Below, piece after piece: positions 1,377 through 40,880 of a stretch of 64,000 bases of DNA. The notes under the pieces are model-generated. The model ran no database searches. It was not told the DNA's origin and was given only the letters and a program-made list of their open reading frames with translations. Origin of the DNA: Eledone cirrhosa (taxonomy: Eukaryota). Made by a program: the position numbers and the translations under genes. Each line of letters starts with the position of its first letter. Within the stretch, counting starts at the first letter, position 1. The DNA lies in assembly GCA_964016885.1 (NCBI GenBank), contig CAXHJY010000081.1, forward strand, positions 1 to 64,000, written 5' to 3'.

Positions 1377-1515
1377 AACGAGTAGGACCCCGACGGCTGA
1401 TCTCAAGCCGTTTCGACGGCTAATTCTGGACATTCTACCCACTCTACTACCTTAAGTATTGAGTACTTTGGTGCGTTATGGTCCACCTGGTTCCTTACCA
1501 CATTTCCTTCGTTAT
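1374..1515 (+). mobile_element. Family A HHR-half element in (TA)n (inverted head plus 3' tail)
   Basis: Antisense copy of GAAAcggcttgagatcagccgTCgggg, followed by the family tail tacccactctactac..ccttcgtta. Confidence 0.7.
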
Positions 1516-1532
1516 ATATATATATTTATATA

Positions 1533-1606
<74 letters not shown>

Positions 1607-1752
1607 AAATGTATATATATATATATATCAGAAAATGTATATATATATATATCAGAAAATGTGTATATATATATCAGAAAATGTGTATGTATATATAATA
1701 TATATATATATATATATCAGAAAATGTGTGTGTATATATATATATCAGAAAA

Positions 1753-1791
<39 letters not shown>

Positions 1792-1794
1792 AAA

Positions 1795-1828
<34 letters not shown>

Positions 1829-1833
1829 AGAAA

Positions 1834-1885
<52 letters not shown>

Positions 1886-2220
1886 AAATTTATATATATA
1901 TATATATATATATATAAATTGAAACAAAATGAAAACGAAATTTCATTTCTCACTCTTAGTATGGCACTTACTTAAATGTAAGTATGCATGTATACGTACA
2001 TACATATATGTATACAGACGTACAGTAGCATGCACATATATATATATATACATATATACATACATATGCATACAGGTACACATACATATATGCACGCATC
2101 AGTTTAGCGGCGCTTATTATAACGTCGCTTTGTTCGTTTGTAAACAAACTGAACAGCCTGAATTTATGCCATACGGTGTTAAGGCAACCACGTCACCTTT
2201 TTGTTCAACACTGACACAGG

Positions 2221-2265
2221 AACGATGTACTAGTTTCAAGCTTGTTAGCTATCATCAGCACCGTT
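2221..2265 (-). ncRNA. Type-I hammerhead ribozyme, unit 1
   Basis: aacggtg-CTGATGA-tagct aaca agctt-GAAA-ctag-TA-catcgtt, with a 7-bp stem I. Confidence 0.85.
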
Positions 2266-2690
2266 TACCCATCTGCCAGATAGTTGAACGTTCGAAAGTA
2301 TATACTTTCCTTATGAAAATTAACGGCTGAGCAGCCTAATTTGCATATTGAGTGAGTTAAATCGGTCAGGCATACCGAAAACGATAAATTGAAACAAAAT
2401 GAAAACGAAATTTCATTTCTCACTCTTAGTATGGCACTTACTTAAATGTAAGTATGCATGTATACGTACATACATATATGTATACAGACGTACAGTAGCA
2501 TGCACATATATATATATATACATATATACATACATATGCATACAGGTACACATACATATATGCACGCATCAGTTTAGCGGCGCTTATTATAACGTCGCTT
2601 TGTTCGTTTGTAAACAAACTGAACAGCCTGAATTTATGCCATACGGTGTTAAGGCAACCACGTCACCTTTTTGTTCAACACTGACACAGG

Positions 2691-2735
2691 AACGATGTAC
2701 TAGTTTCAAGCTTATTAGCTATCATCAGCACCGTT
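2691..2735 (-). ncRNA. Type-I hammerhead ribozyme, unit 2
   Basis: As unit 1, with loop II AATA. Confidence 0.85.
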
Positions 2736-3160
2736 TACCCATCTGCCAGATAGTTGAACGTTCGAAAGTATATACTTTCCTTATGAAAATTAACGGCTGA
2801 GCAGCCTAATTTGCATATTGAGTGAGTTAAATCGGTCAGGCATACCGAAAACGATAAATTGAAACAAAATGAAAACGAAATTTCATTTCTCACTCTTAGT
2901 ATGGCACTTACTTAAATGTAAGTATGCATGTATACGTACATACATATATGTATACAGACGTACAGTAGCATGCACATATATATATATATACATATATACA
3001 TACATATGCATACAGGTACACATACATATATGCACGCATCAGTTTAGCGGCGCTTATTATAACGTCGCTTTGTTCGTTTGTAAACAAACTGAACAGCCTG
3101 AATTTATGCCATACGGTGTTAAGGCAACCACGTCACCTTTTTGTTCAACACTGACACAGG

Positions 3161-3205
3161 AACGATGTACTAGTTTCAAGCTTATTAGCTATCATCAGCA
3201 CCGTT
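3161..3205 (-). ncRNA. Type-I hammerhead ribozyme, unit 3
   Basis: As unit 2. Confidence 0.85.
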
Positions 3206-3357
3206 TACCCATCTGCCAGATAGTTGAACGTTCGAAAGTATATACTTTCCTTGTGTACCTGTATGCATATGTATATATATATGTATATATATATATATAT
3301 ATGTGCATGCTACTGTACGTCTGTATACATATATGTATGTACGTATACATGCATACT

Positions 3358-3391
<34 letters not shown>

Positions 3392-3500
3392 GCCGGAGTA
3401 TCGCTAAAAAGCTTTCTCCGATAACATATTTATTTATTATATATATATATATATTAAAATATAAGTATTAATAAAATAGATTTTCTTTTGATCAATTACA

Positions 3501-3551
3501 TTTTATTATACATATTTCGGATGTACAACAGTACGTCCTCATCAGACAAAA
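3501..3551 (-). ncRNA. Minimal hammerhead ribozyme
   Basis: ttttgt-CTGATGA-ggacgtac tgtt gtacatcc-GAAA-tatgta-TA-ataaaa. Confidence 0.75.
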
Positions 3552-3712
3552 TATAATGATACATGACATACCCTGAGATGTTAAATGGTTAAGATTTAAT
3601 CATTGAATATTGTTTAACAATTTAAAATATATATATATATATATTACTTCTATTATTATTTCTGGCAATATTATAACAATATGACCCTCCACCCCCACCC
3701 GCCAAATATAAC

Positions 3713-3892
3713 GGCGGTGGATTGGCAGTATCGGTAGAGGGTCGGACGCCATGCTTTCCAGCATAGTTACGTCCCTTTACGATCTGAGTTCAAATCCCGC
3801 CGAGGTTGACTTTGCCTTTCATCCTTACGGGGTCGATAAAATAAAGTACCAGTAATGAACTGGGTAATTGCTGGCCTTGTGCCTAAAGTAGA

Positions 3893-3897
<5 letters not shown>
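3713..3897 (+). mobile_element. S1 SINE
   Basis: A and B boxes, core and 3' end as at 128-350. Confidence 0.85.
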
Positions 3898-3937
<40 letters not shown>

Positions 3938-4059
3938 ATAATAATAAAATTGAAGACTAAAATCCATAGAGGGCTCGATAAGGAAAGTATATATCAAATA
4001 TATAAGAACCGTAGAGCAAATATTTATTTATTATTTTAATAAATATATATATATATATA

Positions 4060-4357
4060 TAAGATCAAAAGATGGTTAAAAGAGTTCCATGTATTTTATT
4101 ATGCGCATTTCAAAAACAAATATCATCATGCAATAACATTTGTGTTTTCATCAGATAAAATTTGTGTTTTCTGATGAAAACACAAATGTTATTGTATGAT
4201 GATATTTGTTTTTGAAATGCGCATAATAAAATACATGGAACTCTTTTAACCATCTTTTGATCTTATATATTATATATACTCCAGTCCTACAAACTGTAGA
4301 GTGCTTCTTATCCGATATCTGCATTGCTTTATTGTACTACAATAAAACTCACCTCCT

Positions 4358-4414: not shown

Positions 4415-4418
<4 letters not shown>

Positions 4419-4611
4419 TTTATAGAAGGAGCTTCTACAGGACTAGTACTGTTTCATTCAGATGAAATCTTCAGGAAGCACTGAAGATTTCATCTGAATG
4501 AAACAGTACTAGTCCTGTAGAAGCTCCTTCTATAAAATAAAAAAATTTTACTCTGCCATGTATTGAGTACCTTACTTACTGTGGTTATCCCCGACTCAAC
4601 CCGGGACCTAC

Positions 4612-6834: not shown

Positions 6835-8460
6835 TTGCTTCTGAGTTGAAATCCCGCCGAGGTTAACTTTGCCTTTCATCCTTACGGGGTCGATAAAATA
6901 AAGTACCAGTAATATACTAGAGTAATTGCTGGCCTTGTGCCTAAAGTAGAAACAATTATATATATACATACATGTTCCTTTAACACCTTGTCCCTTCTAC
7001 CATTTTATCAATTTTTTAAGCTAACTCCAACAATAACAACACTTAGAATGAGGAATGTTCTAATAAAATAAAGTACCAGTAATGCACTGGGTAATTGCTG
7101 GCCTTGTGCCAAAAGTAGAAACAATTATTATATGTCATTGGGCGGTGGGTTGGCAGTAACGGTAGATGGTAGGACGCCATGCTTTGACACATAGAGTTAC
7201 GGCCCTTTATGATCTGAGGTCAAATCCCGTCGAGGTTGACTTTGCCTTTCATCCTTACGGGGTCGATAAAATAAAGTACCAGTCACACACTGGGGTCGAT
7301 TTGATCGACTTTCCCCTCCCCCAAAATTGCTGGCCTTGTGTCTATATAAGTGACTATTATTATATGTCATTTTAATAAAGTACCAGTAATACACTGGGAT
7401 AATTGCTGGCCTTGTGCCAAAAGTAGAAACAATTATGTCATTTTAATAAAGTACCAGTAATACACTGGGATAATTGCTGGCCTTGCGCCAAAAGTAGAAA
7501 CAATTATATGTCATTTTAATAAAGTACCAGTAATACACTGGGATAATTGCTGGCCTTGCGCCAAAAGTAGAAACAATTATATGTCATTTTAATAAAGTAC
7601 CAGTAATACACTGGGATAATTGCTGGCCTTGTGCCAAAAGTAGAAACAATTATATGTCATTTTAGTTTTTAAGGCAAAATCTATCTCGGGTCTTATTTAC
7701 TCAACTAACGGCAATCAATTGTCAGAGTCTTTAAAACGTCAGATAGGGTGCTTTGTGGTGTTTGTTCTGTTTCTCTGCTATACCAGTCATGTACTGGGGT
7801 TGATATAATCGACCTTTCCTTTCTACTAAATAGCTGGCTTTGTGTTTATTTTAGAAAGGATATTGGCAATAACCGGTAGAGTGTCAAACAAAATGCCTTG
7901 TATTTACATTATTTAAGACGTTCTAAGATCTGAATTCAAATCCTGTCGAGGTTAACTTTGCCTTTCATCCTTACGGGGTCGATAACATAAAGTACCAGTA
8001 ATGTACTGGCGTTGATTTAATCGACTTTCCCCTCCCCCAAAATTGATGGCTTTGTGCCTATAGTTACGTCCTTTTACGGATTCAGTTCAAATCCTGCCGA
8101 GGTCAACTTTGACTTTCATCTTTTCGGGGTTGATAAAAAAAAGTACCAGCCTAGTACTGGGATCAATTCTTCCTCTCTATCTTTCTCACCCCCCCTCTCT
8201 CTCTCACTTTCTCACCCCCCCCCCCCCTCTCTCCTCCTCCTCTGGAAGAAACCTGCTGTACTCAGGGCTGGAGATCGATGAGCTCCGCCAGGCTTAAAAA
8301 TGCCGCGGTCAACTTTGTCTTTGATCCTTTCGAGGTTGATAAAAAAAAGTACCAGTCTAGTATGGCGCTGCTTCTTCCTCTATATTTATGTCTTACTTCC
8401 TCTTTGTCGGTTTCTATCCTTCTCTGGGAGAAATCTGTTGTACTCAAACCTGGAGAAGTT
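6835..8460 (+). mobile_element. Cluster of S1 SINE copies and fragments
   Basis: Repeated B box plus core at about 6840, 7215, 7930, 8085 and 8295. A full copy lies at 7139-7340. Confidence 0.8.
7361..7662 (+). repeat. 71-73-bp tandem array of the S1 SINE 3' end (4 copies)
   Basis: tttaataaagtaccag at 7371, 7442, 7515 and 7588. Confidence 0.9.
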
Positions 8461-17100: not shown

Positions 17101-17406
17101 ATAAATATATGCATAAAGAAAGTATATACTTTCGGACGTTCAATCATCTGGGAGGAAGGTATACGTTGCTGACGATAGCTAATAAGCTTGAAACTAGTAC
17201 AGCGTTCCTTTGTCAGTGTTGAACAAACGAGCAACGGTGGTTGCTGGACACTACGGCTTAATACGGAATGTTTGTTTACAAACACACCGATCATTATAAT
17301 AAATGTTCGGTGAATCCATACGTACATATATATATGTGTGCATGTATGTATATATATATACATACTACTGTACGTCTGTATACATATATGTATGTACGTA
17401 TATATA

Positions 17407-17410
<4 letters not shown>
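17101..17410 (+). mobile_element. Diverged, 5'-truncated monomer of the 470-bp family, with HHR at 17163-17205
   Basis: acgttg-CTGACGA-tagct aata agctt-GAAA-ctag-TA-cagcgt. Flanks align with the 1916-3252 unit. Confidence 0.8.
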
Positions 17411-23066: not shown

Positions 23067-23328
23067 AAGATCAAAAGATGGTTAAAGGAGTTCCATGTAT
23101 TTTATTATGCGCATTTCAAAAACAAACATCATCATGCAATAATATTTGTGTTTTCATCAGATAAAACAGGAGAACATGATATGAAGGCTAAAAAACACTT
23201 GTGGATAGTGCAGTCTTAAATCAACATATCTTATATATTATGTATACTCCAGTCCTACAAACTGTAGAGTGCTTCTTATCCGATATCTGCATTGCTTTAT
23301 TGTACTACAATAAAACTCACCTCCTACA
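23067..23328. mobile_element. Family D element with an intact HHR at 23100-23166 (-)
   Basis: ttttat-CTGATGA..GAAA-tgcgca-TA-ataaaa, joined to a plus-strand family tail. Confidence 0.8.
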
Positions 23329-23397
23329 TTATATATAAATACATATATATATATATATATATATACATACATACATACATATATACAGCTAACATTG

Positions 23398-23486
23398 GTA
23401 TATATTCTAAAACTGGAACGCTACAGAGATTAGCATGGCTCTTTGCAAGGAAGACACGCAAATTCTTGAAGCCTTCTATATATTTT
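23398..23486 (+). pseudogene. U6 snRNA pseudogene, 5'-truncated
   Basis: ctaaaactggaacgctACAGAGAttagcatggctctttgcaaggaagacacgcaaattcttgaagcc..tatttt aligns to the conserved U6 sequence with substitutions and a small deletion. Confidence 0.85.
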
Positions 23487-26912: not shown

Positions 26913-29900
26913 CAGTGTCTGTCGTTAGAAATATGGTAACGAAAGGGTTAAAGTGTTTATTTATCTAAACATAGTTTAGATATTATAAGCAGTGCCTGTC
27001 GTTAGAAATATGGTAACGAAAGGGTTAAAGTGTTTATTTATCTAAACATAGTTTAGATATTATAAGCAGTGTCTGTCGTTAGAAATATGGTAACGAAAGG
27101 GTTAAAGTGTTTATTTATCTAAACATAGTTTAGATATTATAAGCAGTGCCTGTCGTTAGAAATATGGTAACGAAAGGGTTAAAGTGTTTATTTATCTAAA
27201 CATAGTATTGATATTATAAGCAGTGTCTGTCGTTAGAAATATGGTAACGAAAGGGTTAAAGTGTTTATTTATCTAAACATAGTTTTGATATTATAAGCAG
27301 TGCCTGTCGTTAGAAATATGGTAACGAAAGGGTTAAAGTGTTTATTTATCTAAACATAGTTTAGATATTATAAGCAGTGCCTGTCGTTAGAAATATGGTA
27401 ACGAAAGGGTTAAAGTGTTTATTTATCTAAACATAGTTTAGATATTATAAGCAGTGTCTGTCGTTAGAAATATGGTAACGAAAGGGTTAAAGTGTTTATT
27501 TATCTAAACATAGTTTAGATATTATAAGCAGTGCCTGTCGTTAGAAATATGGTAACGAAAGGGTTAAAGTGTTTATTTATCTAAACATAGTATTGATATT
27601 ATAAGCAGTGTCTGTCGTTAGAAATATGGTAACGAAAGGGTTAAAGTGTTTATTTATCTAAACATAGTTTTGATATTATAAGCAGTGTCTGTCGTTAGAA
27701 ATATGGTAACGAAAGGGTTAAAGTGTTTATTTATCTAAACATAGTTTTGATATTATAAGCAGTGCATGTCGTTAGAAATATGGTAACGAAAGGGTTAAAG
27801 TGTTTATTTATATAAACATAGTTTTGATATTATAAGCAGTGTCTGTCGTTAGAAATATGGTAACGAAAGGGTTAAAGTGTTTATTTATCTAAACATAGTT
27901 TTGATATTATAAGCAGTGTCTGTCGTTAGAAATATGGTAACGAAAGGGTTAAAGTGTTTATTTATCTAAACATAGTTTTGATATTATAAGCAGTGCATGT
28001 CGTTAGAAATATGGTAACGAAAGGGTTAAAGTGTTTATTTATATAAACATAGTTTTGATATTATAAGCAGTGTCTGTCGTTAGAAATATGGTAACGAAAG
28101 GGTTAAAGTGTTTATTTATCTAAACATAGTTTTGATATTATAAGCAGTGTCTGTCGTTAGAAATATGGTAACGAAAGGGTTAAAGTGTTTATTTATCTAA
28201 ACATAGTTTTGATATTATAAGCAGTGCCTGTCGTTAGAAATATGGTAACGAAAGGGTTAAAGTGTTTATTTATCTAAACATAGTTTTGATATTATAAGCA
28301 GTGTCTGTCGTTAGAAATATGGTAACGAAAGAGTTAAAGTGTTTATTTATCTAAACATAGTTTTGATATTATAAGCAGTGTCTGTCGTTAGAAATATGGT
28401 AACGAAAGGGTTAAAGTGTTTATTTATCTAAACATAGTTTTGATATTATAAACAGTGTCTGTCGTTAGAAATATGGTAACGAAAGGGTTAAAGTGTTTAT
28501 TTATCTAAACATAGTTTTGATATTATAAGCAGTGCCTGTCGTTAGAAATATGGTAACGAAAGGGTTAAAGTGTTTATTTATATAAACATAGTTTTGATAT
28601 TATAAGCAGTGTCTGTCGTTAGAAATATGGTAACGAAAGGGTTAAAGTGTTTATTTATCTAAACATAGTTTTGATATTATAAGCAGTGTCTGTCGTTAGA
28701 AATATGGTAACGAAAGGGTTAAAGTGTTTATTTATCTAAACATAGTTTTGATATTATAAGCAGTGCCTGTCGTTAGAAATATGGTAACGAAAGGGTTAAA
28801 GTGTTTATTTATCTAAACATAGTTTTGATATTATAAGCAGTGCCTGTCGTTAGAAATATGGTAACGAAAGGGTTAAAGTGTTTTTTTATCTAAACATAGT
28901 TTTGATATTATAAGCAGTGTCTGTCGTTAGAAATATGGTAACGAAAGAGTTAAAGTGTTTATTTATCTAAACATAGTTTTGATATTATAAGCAGTGTCTG
29001 TCGTTAGAAATATGGTAACGAAAGGGTTAAAGTGTTTATTTATCTAAACATAGTTTTGATATTATAAGCAGTGCCTGTCGTTAGAAATATGGTAACGAAA
29101 GGGTTAAAGTGTTTATTTATATAAACATAGTTTTGATATTATAAGCAGTGTCTGTCGTTAGAAATATGGTAACGAAAGGGTTAAAGTGTTTATTTATCTA
29201 AACATAGTTTTGATATTATAAGCAGTGTCTGTCGTTAGAAATATGGTAACGAAAGGGTTAAAGTGTTTATTTATCTAAACATAGTTTTGATATTATAAGC
29301 AGTGCCTGTCGTTAGAAATATGGTAACGAAAGGGTTAAAGTGTTTATCTAAACATAGTTTTGATATTATAAGCAGTGCCTGTCGTTAGAAATATGGTAAC
29401 GAAAGGGTTAAAGTGTTTATTTATCTAAACATAGTTTTGATATTATAAGCAGTGCCTGTCGTTAGAAATATGGTAACGAAAGGGTTAAAGTGTTTATTTA
29501 TCTAAACATAGTTTTGATATTATAAGCAGTGTCTGTCGTTAGAAATATGGTAACGAAAGGGTTAAAGTGTTTATTTATCTAAACATAGTTTTGATATTAT
29601 AAACAGTGTCTGTCGTTAGAAATATGGTAACGAAAGGGTTAAAGTGTTTATTTATCTAAACATAGTTTTGATATTATAAGCAGTGCCTGTCGTTAGAAAT
29701 ATGGTAACGAAAGGGTTAAAGTGTTTATTTATATAAACATAGTTTTGATATTATAAGCAGTGTCTGTCGTTAGAAATATGGTAACGAAAGGGTTAAAGTG
29801 TTTATTTATCTAAACATAGTTTTGATATTATAAGCAGTGTCTGTCGTTAGAAATATGGTAACGAAAGGGTTAAAGTGTTTATTTATCTAAACATAGTTTT

Positions 29901-32480
29901 GATATTATAAGCAGTGCCTGTCGTTAGAAATATGGTAACGAAAGGGTTAAAGTGTTTATTTATCTAAACATAGTTTTGATATTATAAGCAGTGCCTGTCG
30001 TTAGAAATATGGTAACGAAAGGGTTAAAGTGTTTTTTTATCTAAACATAGTTTTGATATTATAAGCAGTGTCTGTCGTTAGAAATATGGTAACGAAAGAG
30101 TTAAAGTGTTTATTTATCTAAACATAGTTTTGATATTATAAGCAGTGTCTGTCGTTAGAAATATGGTAACGAAAGGGTTAAAGTGTTTATTTATCTAAAC
30201 ATAGTTTTGATATTATAAGCAGTGCCTGTCGTTAGAAATATGGTAACGAAAGGGTTAAAGTGTTTATTTATCTAAACATAGTTTTGATATTATAAGCAGT
30301 GTCTGTCGTTAGAAATATGGTAACGAAAGGGTTAAAGTGTTTATTTATCTAAACATAGTTTTGATATTATAAGCAGTGTCTGTCGTTAGAAATATGGTAA
30401 CGAAAGGGTTAAAGTGTTTATTTATCTAAACATAGTTTTGATATTATAAGCAGTGCCTGTCGTTAGAAATATGGTAACGAAAGGGTTAAAGTGTTTATCT
30501 AAACATAGTTTTGATATTATAAGCAGTGCCTGTCGTTAGAAATATGGTAACGAAAGGGTTAAAGTGTTTATTTATCTAAACATAGTTTTGATATTATAAG
30601 CAGTGCCTGTCGTTAGAAATATGGTAACGAAAGGGTTAAAGTGTTTATTTATCTAAACATAGTTTTGATATTATAAGCAGTGTCTGTCGTTAGAAATATG
30701 GTAACGAAAGAGTTAAAGTTGTTATTTAACTAAACATAGTTTTGATATTATAAGCAGTGTCTGTCGTTAGAAATATGGTAACGAAAGAGTTAAAGTGTTT
30801 ATTTATCTAAACATAGTTTTGATATTATAAGCAGTGTCTGTCGTAGGAAATATGGTAACGAAAGGGTTAAAGTGTTTATTTATATAAACATAGTTTTGAT
30901 ATTATAAGCAGTGCCTGTCGTTAGAAATATGGTAACGAAAGGGTTAAAGTGTTTATTTATATAAACATAGTTTTGATATTATAAGCAGTGCCTGTCGTTA
31001 GAAATATGGTAACGAAAGGGTTAAAGTGTTTATTTATCTAAACATAGTTTTGATATTATAAGCAGTGTCTGTCGTTAGAAATATGGTAACGAAAGGGTTA
31101 AAGTGTTTATTTATCTAAACATAGTTTTGATATTATATTCAGTGTCTGTCGTTAGAAATATGGTAACGAAAGGGTTAAAGTGTTTATTTATCTAAACATA
31201 GTTTAGATATTATAAGCAGTGCCTGTCGTTAGAAATATGGTAACGAAAGGGTTAAAGTGTTTATTTATCTAAACATAGTTTTGATATTATAAGCAGTGTC
31301 TGTCGTTAGAAATATGGTAACGAAAGGGTTAAAGTGTTTATTTATCTAAACATAGTTTTGATATTATATTCAGTGTCTGTCGTTAGAAATATGGTAACGA
31401 AAGGGTTAAAGTGTTTATTTATCTAAACATAGTTTTGATATTATAAGCAGTGCCTGTCGTTAGAAATATGGTAACGAAAGGGTTAAAGTGTTTATTTATC
31501 TAAACATAGTTTTGATATTATAAGCAGTGTCTGTCGTTAGAAATATGGTAACGAAAGAGTTAAAGTGTTTATTTATCTAAACATAGTTTTGATATTATAA
31601 GCAGTGTCTGTCGTTAGAAATATGGTAACGAAAGGGTTAAAGTGTTTATTTATCTAAACATAGTTTTGATATTATAAGCAGTGCCTGTCGTTAGAAATAT
31701 GGTAACGAAAGGGTTAAAGTGTTTATTTATCTAAACATAGTTTTGATATTATAAGCAGTGTCTGTCGTTAGAAATATGGTAACGAAAGGGTTAAAGTGTT
31801 TATTTATCTAAACATAGTTTTGATATTATAAGCAGTGCCTGTCGTTAGAAATATGGTAACGAAAGGGTTAAAGTGTTTATTTATCTAAACATAGTTTTGA
31901 TATTATAAGCAGTGCCTGTCGTTAGAAATATGGTAACGAAAGGGTTAAAGTGTTTATTTATCTAAACATAGTTTTGATATTATAAGCAGTGTCTGTCGTT
32001 AGAAATATGGTAACGAAAGGGTTAAAGTGTTTATTTATCTAAACATAGTTTTGATATTATAAGCAGTGTCTGTCGTTAGAAATATGGTAACGAAAGAGTT
32101 AAAGTGTTTATTTATCTAAACATAGTTTTGATATTATAAGCAGTGTCTGTCGTTAGAAATATGGTAACAAAAGGGTTAAAGTGTTTATATTTATCTAAAA
32201 ATTGTCTTAATATTATAAGCAGTGTCTGTCATTAGAAATATGGCAACGAAAGAGTTAAAGTGTTTATATTTATTTAAGTATCATAGACAATGCGTAAAGG
32301 GTTAAAGTGTTTATATTCATCTAAAAAATATTTGTAAACCATAGGCAGTGTCTTTCATTAGAAATATGGTAATTAAGTGGTTCAAGTGTTTATATTTGTC
32401 TAAAAATTATTTAAAAATTCTTGGCAGTGTTTTTCATTAGAAGCATATTAACGAAAGGGTTAAAGTGTTTATATTTATCT
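26913..32480 (+). repeat. 77-bp satellite, about 70 units, homogeneous core with a degenerate right edge
   Basis: gaaagggttaa at 26941, 27018, 27095 and onward. The unit contains a MITE-like terminus GGTAACGAAAGGG-TTAA. Confidence 0.95.
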
Positions 32481-39569: not shown

Positions 39570-39787
39570 AATCGGAGGTAACCACAGTAAGTAAGGTACT
39601 CAATACATAGCAGAGTATAAAAGTTTTAATATAGATGAGATTCTACAGGACTAGAACTGTTTCATTCTTTAGAAATCATCAGGAATCATTCCTGATGATT
39701 TCATTCTTTAGAAATCATCAGGAATCATTCCTGATGATTTCTAAAGAATGAAACAGTTCTAGTCCTGTAGAATCTCATCTATATTAA

Positions 39788-40415: not shown

Positions 40416-40449
<34 letters not shown>

Positions 40450-40452
<3 letters not shown>

Positions 40453-40871
40453 CAAATAATTTCGTTTCGTTATTTGTTTTTATCGTCTCCGCTGAACCGG
40501 TGCGTACTCACACTCTATGCAAATTAGTCTGCCCACTACTAATTTTCATAGAAAAAGCATATAACGATATGTGCTTTTACAATTCTCCAGAAAGGCCGGT
40601 AGATAGGTAAATATTGCTGATGAGTTGTAACAACAACGAAACTAGTTCAATATTCCTTGTCTGGCTTTCTGGAGAATAGAGGGAAGGTGTTCCCCCGAAA
40701 AACCAGTATGACTCTAAAAACCGGTTTGTCTGTGTGTTTACACACAGAATAGCTGGGCCGCTCACTGTAAAGCGACCAGTGAAAGACTTGGTACACCTAC
40801 ATATGTATACGTGTGTGTATTCATATACACACTAGTATTTCAGTATGCATATGTAGATGTACATTTTTAAC

Positions 40872-40880
<9 letters not shown>
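40450..40880 (+). mobile_element. Highly diverged monomer of the 470-bp family, with HHR at 40610-40654
   Basis: aatattg-CTGATGA-gttgt aaca acaac-GAAA-ctag-TT-caatatt. Outer stem 40582-40599/40661-40677. Shares the ATGCAAAT inverted pair. Confidence 0.8.

Follow-up and report, generated by a model that had tools for sequence, protein, structure and literature searches.

A 470-bp non-LTR retrozyme of Eledone cirrhosa, likely copied by Penelope-like machinery and probably from a circular RNA

The closest described relatives of the repeat analyzed here are the non-LTR retrozymes of metazoans, represented by those of coral, mussel and axolotl (Rtz331 and Rtz353) and by newt satellite 2 (Cervera and de la Pena 2020, PMC7229834). 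With the elements covered in the available part of that report, our repeat shares a non-coding low-GC tandem unit that carries one canonical type I hammerhead ribozyme (HHR), contacts between the ribozyme loops, a palindromic helix III, a self-paired fold, thousands of copies and the presence of Penelope-like elements (PLEs) in the same genome; its unit is 470 nt long, compared to 170-400 nt there and 51-972 nt in the available part of Li et al. 2026 (10.64898/2026.07.22.740005). In the accessible text of PMC7229834, mobilisation by PLEs is proposed only, and two-armed insertions or fixed priming sites are not described; in the retrozyme literature as far as it was available, the return of animal retrozymes to DNA and their transcription are proposed rather than demonstrated. 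Li, Clavereau and Pollet (2026) present vertebrate retrozymes as non-autonomous PLE derivatives, i.e., the same class with the same proposed driver. The evidence in the accessible part of that preprint consists of co-occurrence and pLTR homology, and the four invertebrates included there comprise no mollusc, whereas our case is built on the anatomy of insertions, and our search revealed no pLTR homologue. The EN+ PLEs, as described in the available portions of two reports (Craig et al. 2021, PMC8557442; Frangieh et al. 2024, PMC11167929), have in common with our repeat partial tandems, an inverted 5'-truncated arm, a tail confined to one end, insertion into (TA)n or AT-rich DNA, two internal priming sites and an HHR in the 3' region. 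Unlike them, our repeat has no ORF, its tail is ~60-75 rather than 30-40 nt long and its HHR is canonical rather than minimal. A search of literature titles and abstract openings, with few subscription journals covered, retrieved no cephalopod retrozyme and no two-armed retrozyme footprint; relevant examples could be contained in the supplements to PMC7229834 and to the 2026 preprint.

The window, i.e., the whole stretch of DNA that was analyzed, comprises 64,000 nt at the start of contig CAXHJY010000081.1, and genome-wide counts given below refer to a genome of 3.0 Gb. The first-pass annotation of the window had noted three nearly identical minus-strand HHRs spaced by 470 nt. This was confirmed: identity at period 470 spans positions 1914-3252, and the sole difference, 2244/2714, is the Y of loop II. 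A TRF analysis of the array gave 2.8 copies at 99%, and the main arm traced by us contains 2.85 units. The whole insertion (1916..3362) is two-armed and lies within a (TA)n target, with a (TA)n-rich left flank (1513..1916) and a (TA)n right flank (3363..3388); when checked for a target-site duplication, both insertion ends were found to sit in (TA)n. Its main arm (1914..3255, minus strand) is made of head-to-tail units at 2854-3255 (truncated at q69), 2384-2853 and 1914-2383 and stops at what we refer to as the "long" 3' terminus. The unit coordinate q equals 2384 minus the window position in the last unit, q1 being position 2383 on the minus strand and the HHR cut falling after q156. The inverted 5' segment that had been noted is also real, since the plus strand at ~3252-3362 matches q302-411 of the unit. 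This inverted arm (3252..3362, plus strand) extends from q302 to ~q408-411, stops at the "short" 3' terminus and overlaps the main arm by ~4 nt at the junction (~3252-3255). The two fixed termini are separated by a ~60-nt "tail" (1914..1972, minus strand) that is present in the main arm only. A TA/TG-rich self-complementary hairpin (1984..2099, also at +470 and +940, minus strand) is internal to the unit and differs in length among loci.

The region is non-coding: ORFs in the array are only repeat-derived, the 202-aa frame of the 470-bp repeat has no Pfam match, and no RT + GIY-YIG ORF is present in the repeat. The GC content is 0.34 over positions 2001-4000. The retrozyme identity proposed for the tandem holds up, and the 470-bp repeat, hereafter family A, is a non-LTR retrozyme, a known class of element.

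The three type I HHRs are located on the minus strand at 3161..3209 (core start 3198, predicted cut 3168/3167), 2691..2739 (core start 2728, predicted cut 2698/2697, loop II AAUA) and 2221..2269 (core start 2258, predicted cut 2228/2227, loop II AACA). The N17 residues are at 3168, 2698 and 2228, and the cleavage triplet is GUA. Cleavage at the second and third sites would release a 470-nt monomer (2228..2697, minus strand), probably the sole full monomer of this insertion that lies downstream of an intact promoter-like element (see below). The palindromic helix III (A-CUAG-U), the GGUA bulge and the AAYA loop described in the first-pass annotation were found at all three HHRs; a U.U mismatch at the base of helix II had gone unremarked. 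A strict paired HHR pattern matched the window four times and none of 100 block shuffles, and Rfam at gathering thresholds left the window HHRs undetected. Further HHR-like motifs of other families are present in the window at 3485-3570 (minus strand), 4055-4270, 4415-4545, 23106-23160 (minus strand) and 39644-39769. Those at 4055-4270, 4415-4545 and 39644-39769 are fold-back pairs, i.e., two inverted copies beside TA repeats, that resemble miniature two-armed PLE ends.

When searched with a 30-place HHR pattern, the genome yielded 26,739 exact matches (0 with the reversed control), and a looser bulge-plus-loop pattern yielded 39,618 (3 with the control). Contigs from six sequencing runs of unrecorded kind contain the sequence as well. 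The best 40 scored matches of family A are 87-100% identical, and the loci closest to the sub-lineage of the window array reach 98-99%, which agrees with the earlier view of a young family. Family B (468 bp) is 62% identical to family A over 361 nt, and its best 40 scored matches, found across many contigs, are 98-100% identical. The unit of family C is 422-424 bp long. Segments 17101-17410 and 40450-40880 had been taken for diverged monomers of the window family; they are instead plus-strand members of these two other high-copy families. The first (17101..17410) is a 5'-truncated family C copy with its HHR core at 17169 that stops at the short terminus in (TA)n. The second (40447..40877) is a family B copy with its HHR core at 40617 and a promoter-like element at 40516-40527 that also stops at the short terminus, and a ~13-nt inverted stub of it (~40447-40459) stops at the long one. 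HHRs are present in both copies as claimed, but their cores are not strictly kept, being slightly changed (CUGACGA at 17169, GUU cleavage triplet at 40647). One more tandem family, with a 310-bp unit and a similar type I HHR (U.U base, ACGCGU helix III), forms a two-armed insertion beside a family A array (L134:4800-6300). Other repeats of the window include a 77-bp satellite at 26913-32267 (~70 copies, 97%) and a SINE-like repeat, of which both dispersed and tandem copies occur at 449-942, 3727-3905 and 7359-7664, including a 225-bp dimer and a 73-bp tandem of its 3' part.

Covariation was assessed on 32 of 71 distinct HHR sequences, namely, 30 that occur at least twice and two singletons. 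It holds: 86% of alignment cells pair, and 9 of 14 pairs are changed on both sides across families, though the rows are related and the double changes represent a handful of independent events only. None of 500 shuffles reaches this level, and slid controls are low.

The family A ribozyme, while canonical in layout, looks weak as a monomer, given the U.U at the base of helix II and the minimal helix III. According to the accessible part of an earlier study, a short palindromic helix III blocks cleavage of monomers and dimers rescue it (Cervera and de la Pena 2014, PMC4209133). Axolotl HHRs in which helix III is minimal or helix II has a U.U base are reported in the available text of PMC7229834 to cleave as monomers to 6% and 22% in one hour and much better as dimers. 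Family A resembles HHR_Amex2 in its U.U helix II base and HHR_Amex1 in its minimal helix III; unlike the axolotl HHRs described there, it combines both weakening features in one ribozyme. Among Xenopus dimers, one of nine was cleaved and eight were not (Li et al. 2026, available part). In the predicted 470-nt circle, helix II pairs with a probability of 0.91-1.0, inner stem I with 0.18-0.28 and helix III with 0; since helix III is not formed, such a circle would be protected. The predicted 470-nt monomer is strongly self-paired (z -7.4, to which the TA-rich hairpin contributes part), and the HHR domain alone has a folding z of -3.8.

To describe insertion anatomy, 211 arms were traced in 118 loci, 68 of which were taken in positional order from pattern matches and 50 by similarity. 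TA repeats terminate 158 of the 209 non-edge arms, and 148 of these 158 TA-flanked 3' ends map to one of two fixed sites, which are ~60-75 nt apart and far from the ribozyme cut (~250-310 nt downstream of it). The sites are q~407-411 or q~464-470 in family A, 428/433 or 34 of the next unit in family B and 377 or ~424 in family C. Divergent two-armed pairs were seen 66 times within the 118 loci; both ends could be classified in 45, and the other 21, having a degraded or unresolved end, were left unclassified. As many as 44 of the 45 combine one long and one short terminus (binomial p ~3e-12, one of the 44 being a segmental duplicate counted twice), and the lone exception is long+long. The rule also holds in sister families B and C, and the window insertion obeys it, with one terminus per arm. 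The 99.8% identity of the three units at 1916..3362 could raise the suspicion that this array is an assembly artefact, but we regard this as very improbable: its ends follow the family rule, one SNP distinguishes its units, and multi-unit arms are common, 43 of the 211 arms crossing at least two cut sites.

RT+GIY-YIG elements of the same genome show the same long and short ends in (TA)n (e.g., L130 and L261), and the tail in one of their families is 64 nt long. In several of these elements, a cysteine finger precedes the nuclease, as described for Neptune. Purified PLE protein was reported to cut and extend both strands and to prime at two internal RNA sites bounding the tail (Frangieh et al. 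2024, PMC11167929, available part), and the accessible text of Craig et al. 2021 (PMC8557442) lists a tail and an inverted arm as PLE hallmarks. PLE mobilisation had been suggested in the first-pass annotation from one inverted segment; the two fixed termini, the long+short pairing and the match to the genome's own PLEs make a much stronger case. Our strongest result is that the two-site, two-strand footprint is the one left by PLEs of this genome and measured for purified PLE protein; as judged from insertion sequences, the retrozyme copies were very likely made by PLE machinery. Evidence on the copying route is unusually clear, while the element class itself is known. The signature points to an enzyme class and gives priming positions on the 470-nt RNA.

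A partner PLE was sought by 3'-end or pLTR homology at 62 of the 150 listed GIY-YIG loci (10,595 candidates), without success; matches of 3' ends at GIY-YIG loci were nested insertions or microsatellite. One Neptune-like PLE family (L124, L125, L128 and L261) carries a minimal HHR ~390 nt after the GIY-YIG domain, with a U.U at the helix II base as well; no HHR was found in other Neptune-like families of this genome. As a separate observation, a predicted helix (q424-431/q27-33) connects the tail of the family A unit with sequences that immediately precede the promoter-like element and encloses the long terminus. It has equivalents in families B and C and is a candidate PLE-binding structure.

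The nature of the template was approached through variation among units. At the polymorphic loop II base, none of the 19 position-ordered arrays varies, and the uniformity of 11 CUGACGA arrays at the loop base was matched by none of 100,000 shuffles. The idea that the loop II Y is a mutation hot spot was dropped, as the effect is likely one of query selection and the position-ordered arrays do not vary there. In family A, units differ by 1.6% within loci (107 pairs) and by 6.0% between loci (3,053 pairs), and only 41 of 68 units have their nearest neighbour within their own locus. Comparison of the two arms in 42 long/short insertions showed that variants specific to one unit were missing in 49 cases from the opposite unit of the same rank, with sharing seen at a single site. 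Since rank-matched variants are not shared and each insertion has one haplotype, the template appears to have had identical units. Such a template would be either a monomer circle or the transcript of a very young array, and the footprint of a circle would be indistinguishable from that of a transcript derived from a young homogeneous array. On balance, we think that the template was probably a 470-nt circular RNA, which PLE would have written into (TA)n as one recent insertion.

Some arrays grew at the DNA level, so tandem structure alone is no proof of a circular template. A 14-kb two-armed array of a family B variant (L211 and L212, G000:C1 ~5,738,000-5,752,700) has 31 HHRs on one arm and one on the other, a compensatory change in stem II and nested recurring variants shared among its units. 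In locus L136, an ABABA array fits duplication of an 844-bp DNA block, and its first unit is a hybrid. A dimeric circle as the source of this array was rejected, given the fit of the hybrid first unit to the 844-bp duplication. A 4-unit periodicity in L133 was also dropped, as it rests on one site beside a variable C-run. Expansion of this kind (the 31-HHR arm and L136) and the route put forward in the available part of Li et al. 2026 are both compatible with the repeat being a dead pLTR fragment of an autonomous PLE, multiplied as satellite DNA and lacking an independent RNA cycle. We find this explanation quite improbable: the loci are dispersed, each having its own fixed termini and arms that wrap past one unit; no coding remnant and no pLTR homology were found (62 GIY-YIG loci); and the best 40 family B matches are 98-100% identical across many contigs.

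The same element and the same PLE machinery could also have used an uncut linear multi-unit transcript, with the HHR being a slow trimmer or acting later. In the in vitro PLE reactions, as far as the available part of PMC11167929 reports, the RNA was uncut, priming was internal and the element's own HHR was not needed. The HHR looks weak, a two-ended footprint of the same kind is also left by autonomous PLEs that yielded no HHR, long source arrays exist, and in families A, B and C, the long terminus adjoins T-rich runs. These points speak for an uncut transcript; against it, units of genomic arrays differ (by a mean of 1.6% in family A) and yet daughter insertions lack rank-matched shared variants (49 against 1), and compensatory change keeps the ribozyme structure across four families. 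In addition, RNA of other metazoan retrozymes occurs mainly as circles (PMC7229834, available part). We consider an uncut template unlikely, if still deserving attention, and favor the circle.

Improbable, in our opinion, is a third template, cut linear monomers, with RT jumping from the 5' end of one monomer to the 3' end of another. The enzyme would then stop at q157, but 5' ends are scattered: of 167 usable ends, a single one maps to within 5 nt of the cut versus 4.1 expected, i.e., there is no excess, and the deficit is not significant. The loci used in this comparison were chosen for HHR content or resemblance to the query, a bias from which second arms and multi-unit arms are free. Jumping between monomers might explain the mosaic of variants in the 31-unit array, but these variants are nested, as expected of DNA duplication; arrays are uniform at a site polymorphic family-wide, and single-unit variants show no excess of A>G (10 A>G and 14 T>C of 173). 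A search for RNA-editing scars revealed no overall A>G/T>C asymmetry (7/7, 17/16 and 15/9). A>G accounts for 5 of 15 insertion-wide versus 10 of 173 single-unit variants (Fisher p 0.003), a post hoc comparison of small numbers that is a lead only.

HHR repeats with their own small-RNA promoter are known from newt satellite 2 (snRNA type, Pol II) and a schistosome satellite (Pol III), both cited in the available part of PMC2220036, and family A may be a further case. An octamer-like block conserved between families A and B served as an entry point to small-RNA genes of this genome. Three U6 lineages, the best U6atac match and RNase MRP carry an element TATG(C/G)(A/T)AAT(T/G)AG at -77 to -79 and a TATA at -30. 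In the window array, a 12-nt promoter-like element (2806..2817, minus strand) is identical at 12 of 12 positions to the -78 element of U6 locus L142 and is also the 5' arm of a predicted hairpin; a second copy is at 2336..2347 (minus strand). A TATA-like box follows 43 nt after the element start (2769..2774, also 2299-2304 and 3239-3244, minus strand). The element is exact in 91 of 94 family A and 52 of 53 family B units sampled; in family C, it is exact in 20 of 61 units, with one change in most others. By chance, it arises in 94 of 200,000 shuffles. Unlike the newt and schistosome promoters as described in the accessible text of PMC2220036, the family A element matches the upstream element of the host's own U6, U6atac and MRP genes, not that of U2, and its TATA spacing is shortened.

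This spacing is 43, 42 and 43 nt in families A, B and C compared to 47-49 nt in five Pol III genes, i.e., ~5 nt too short; spacing in insect promoters was reported to vary by 1-2 bp (PMC1761439, available part). At the corresponding place, the 12-nt element is absent from two other U6 loci, seven weaker U6atac matches (several are repeat-flanked and likely retrocopies) and three U2 upstream regions, and in a further U6 variant, it is disrupted by an insertion. It is also absent from the 140 nt upstream of the HHR of the 310-bp family. Transcription start is predicted by U6 geometry near q110, just upstream of the hammerhead bulge, and the 167 usable retrozyme 5' ends mark no start site. Runs of five Ts are expected to stop Pol III, and family B units contain such runs. 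On this sequence evidence, we give about even chances that the 12-nt element and the TATA-like box act as a promoter.

One can envision the following cycle. Minus-strand transcription of a tandem copy would come first, with the U6-like element and the TATA-like box upstream of the hammerhead as a possible promoter. The hammerheads, likely acting as dimers and at a low rate, are predicted to make one cut in each unit, and a host RtcB-type ligase would likely close the monomer, as in coral, mussel and axolotl. As the footprint suggests, PLE protein would then nick both (TA)n strands and prime at two internal sites ~60 nt apart and ~250-310 nt downstream of the cut. The sequences themselves display two divergent arms, one per site, with zero to at least seven passes through the cut and scattered 5' ends. 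Later duplications at the DNA level, seen for two arrays, can lengthen the array. Tandem copying would regenerate the promoter. We tentatively propose, as a possibility less probable than either the circular template or the promoter taken singly, that the 470-nt unit is a parasite of three modules: an snRNA-type promoter shared with U6 and MRP, a hammerhead setting the length of the circle, and a structured tail for double PLE priming from both (TA)n strands, with RT rolling round the circle and tandem copying rebuilding an upstream promoter in every new insertion. If this reading is true, the genome records rolling-circle reverse transcription of a circular RNA and names RNA sites to test. 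As the substrate is short, the genome contains full-length PLE ORFs and an in vitro assay is already established, the choice between circular and linear templates is directly testable, and the candidate promoter offers a second clean test.

The upstream element common to U6, U6atac and RNase MRP genes (upstream regions of L141-L143, L251 and L279) is an observation in its own right and could help to build expression cassettes for this group of animals; in the upstream regions of the three U2 genes, a different block is conserved. A degenerate U6 copy in the window (23383-23485, plus strand) directly follows a TA repeat, lacks the upstream element and is likely a retrocopy, and the U6atac locus L253 has the same appearance. 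Finally, U6 genes form a tandem array with a period of ~1.8 kb at G000:C19 31.78-31.84 Mb, and U2 genes form one with a period of ~2.2 kb at C3 307.35-307.45 Mb.
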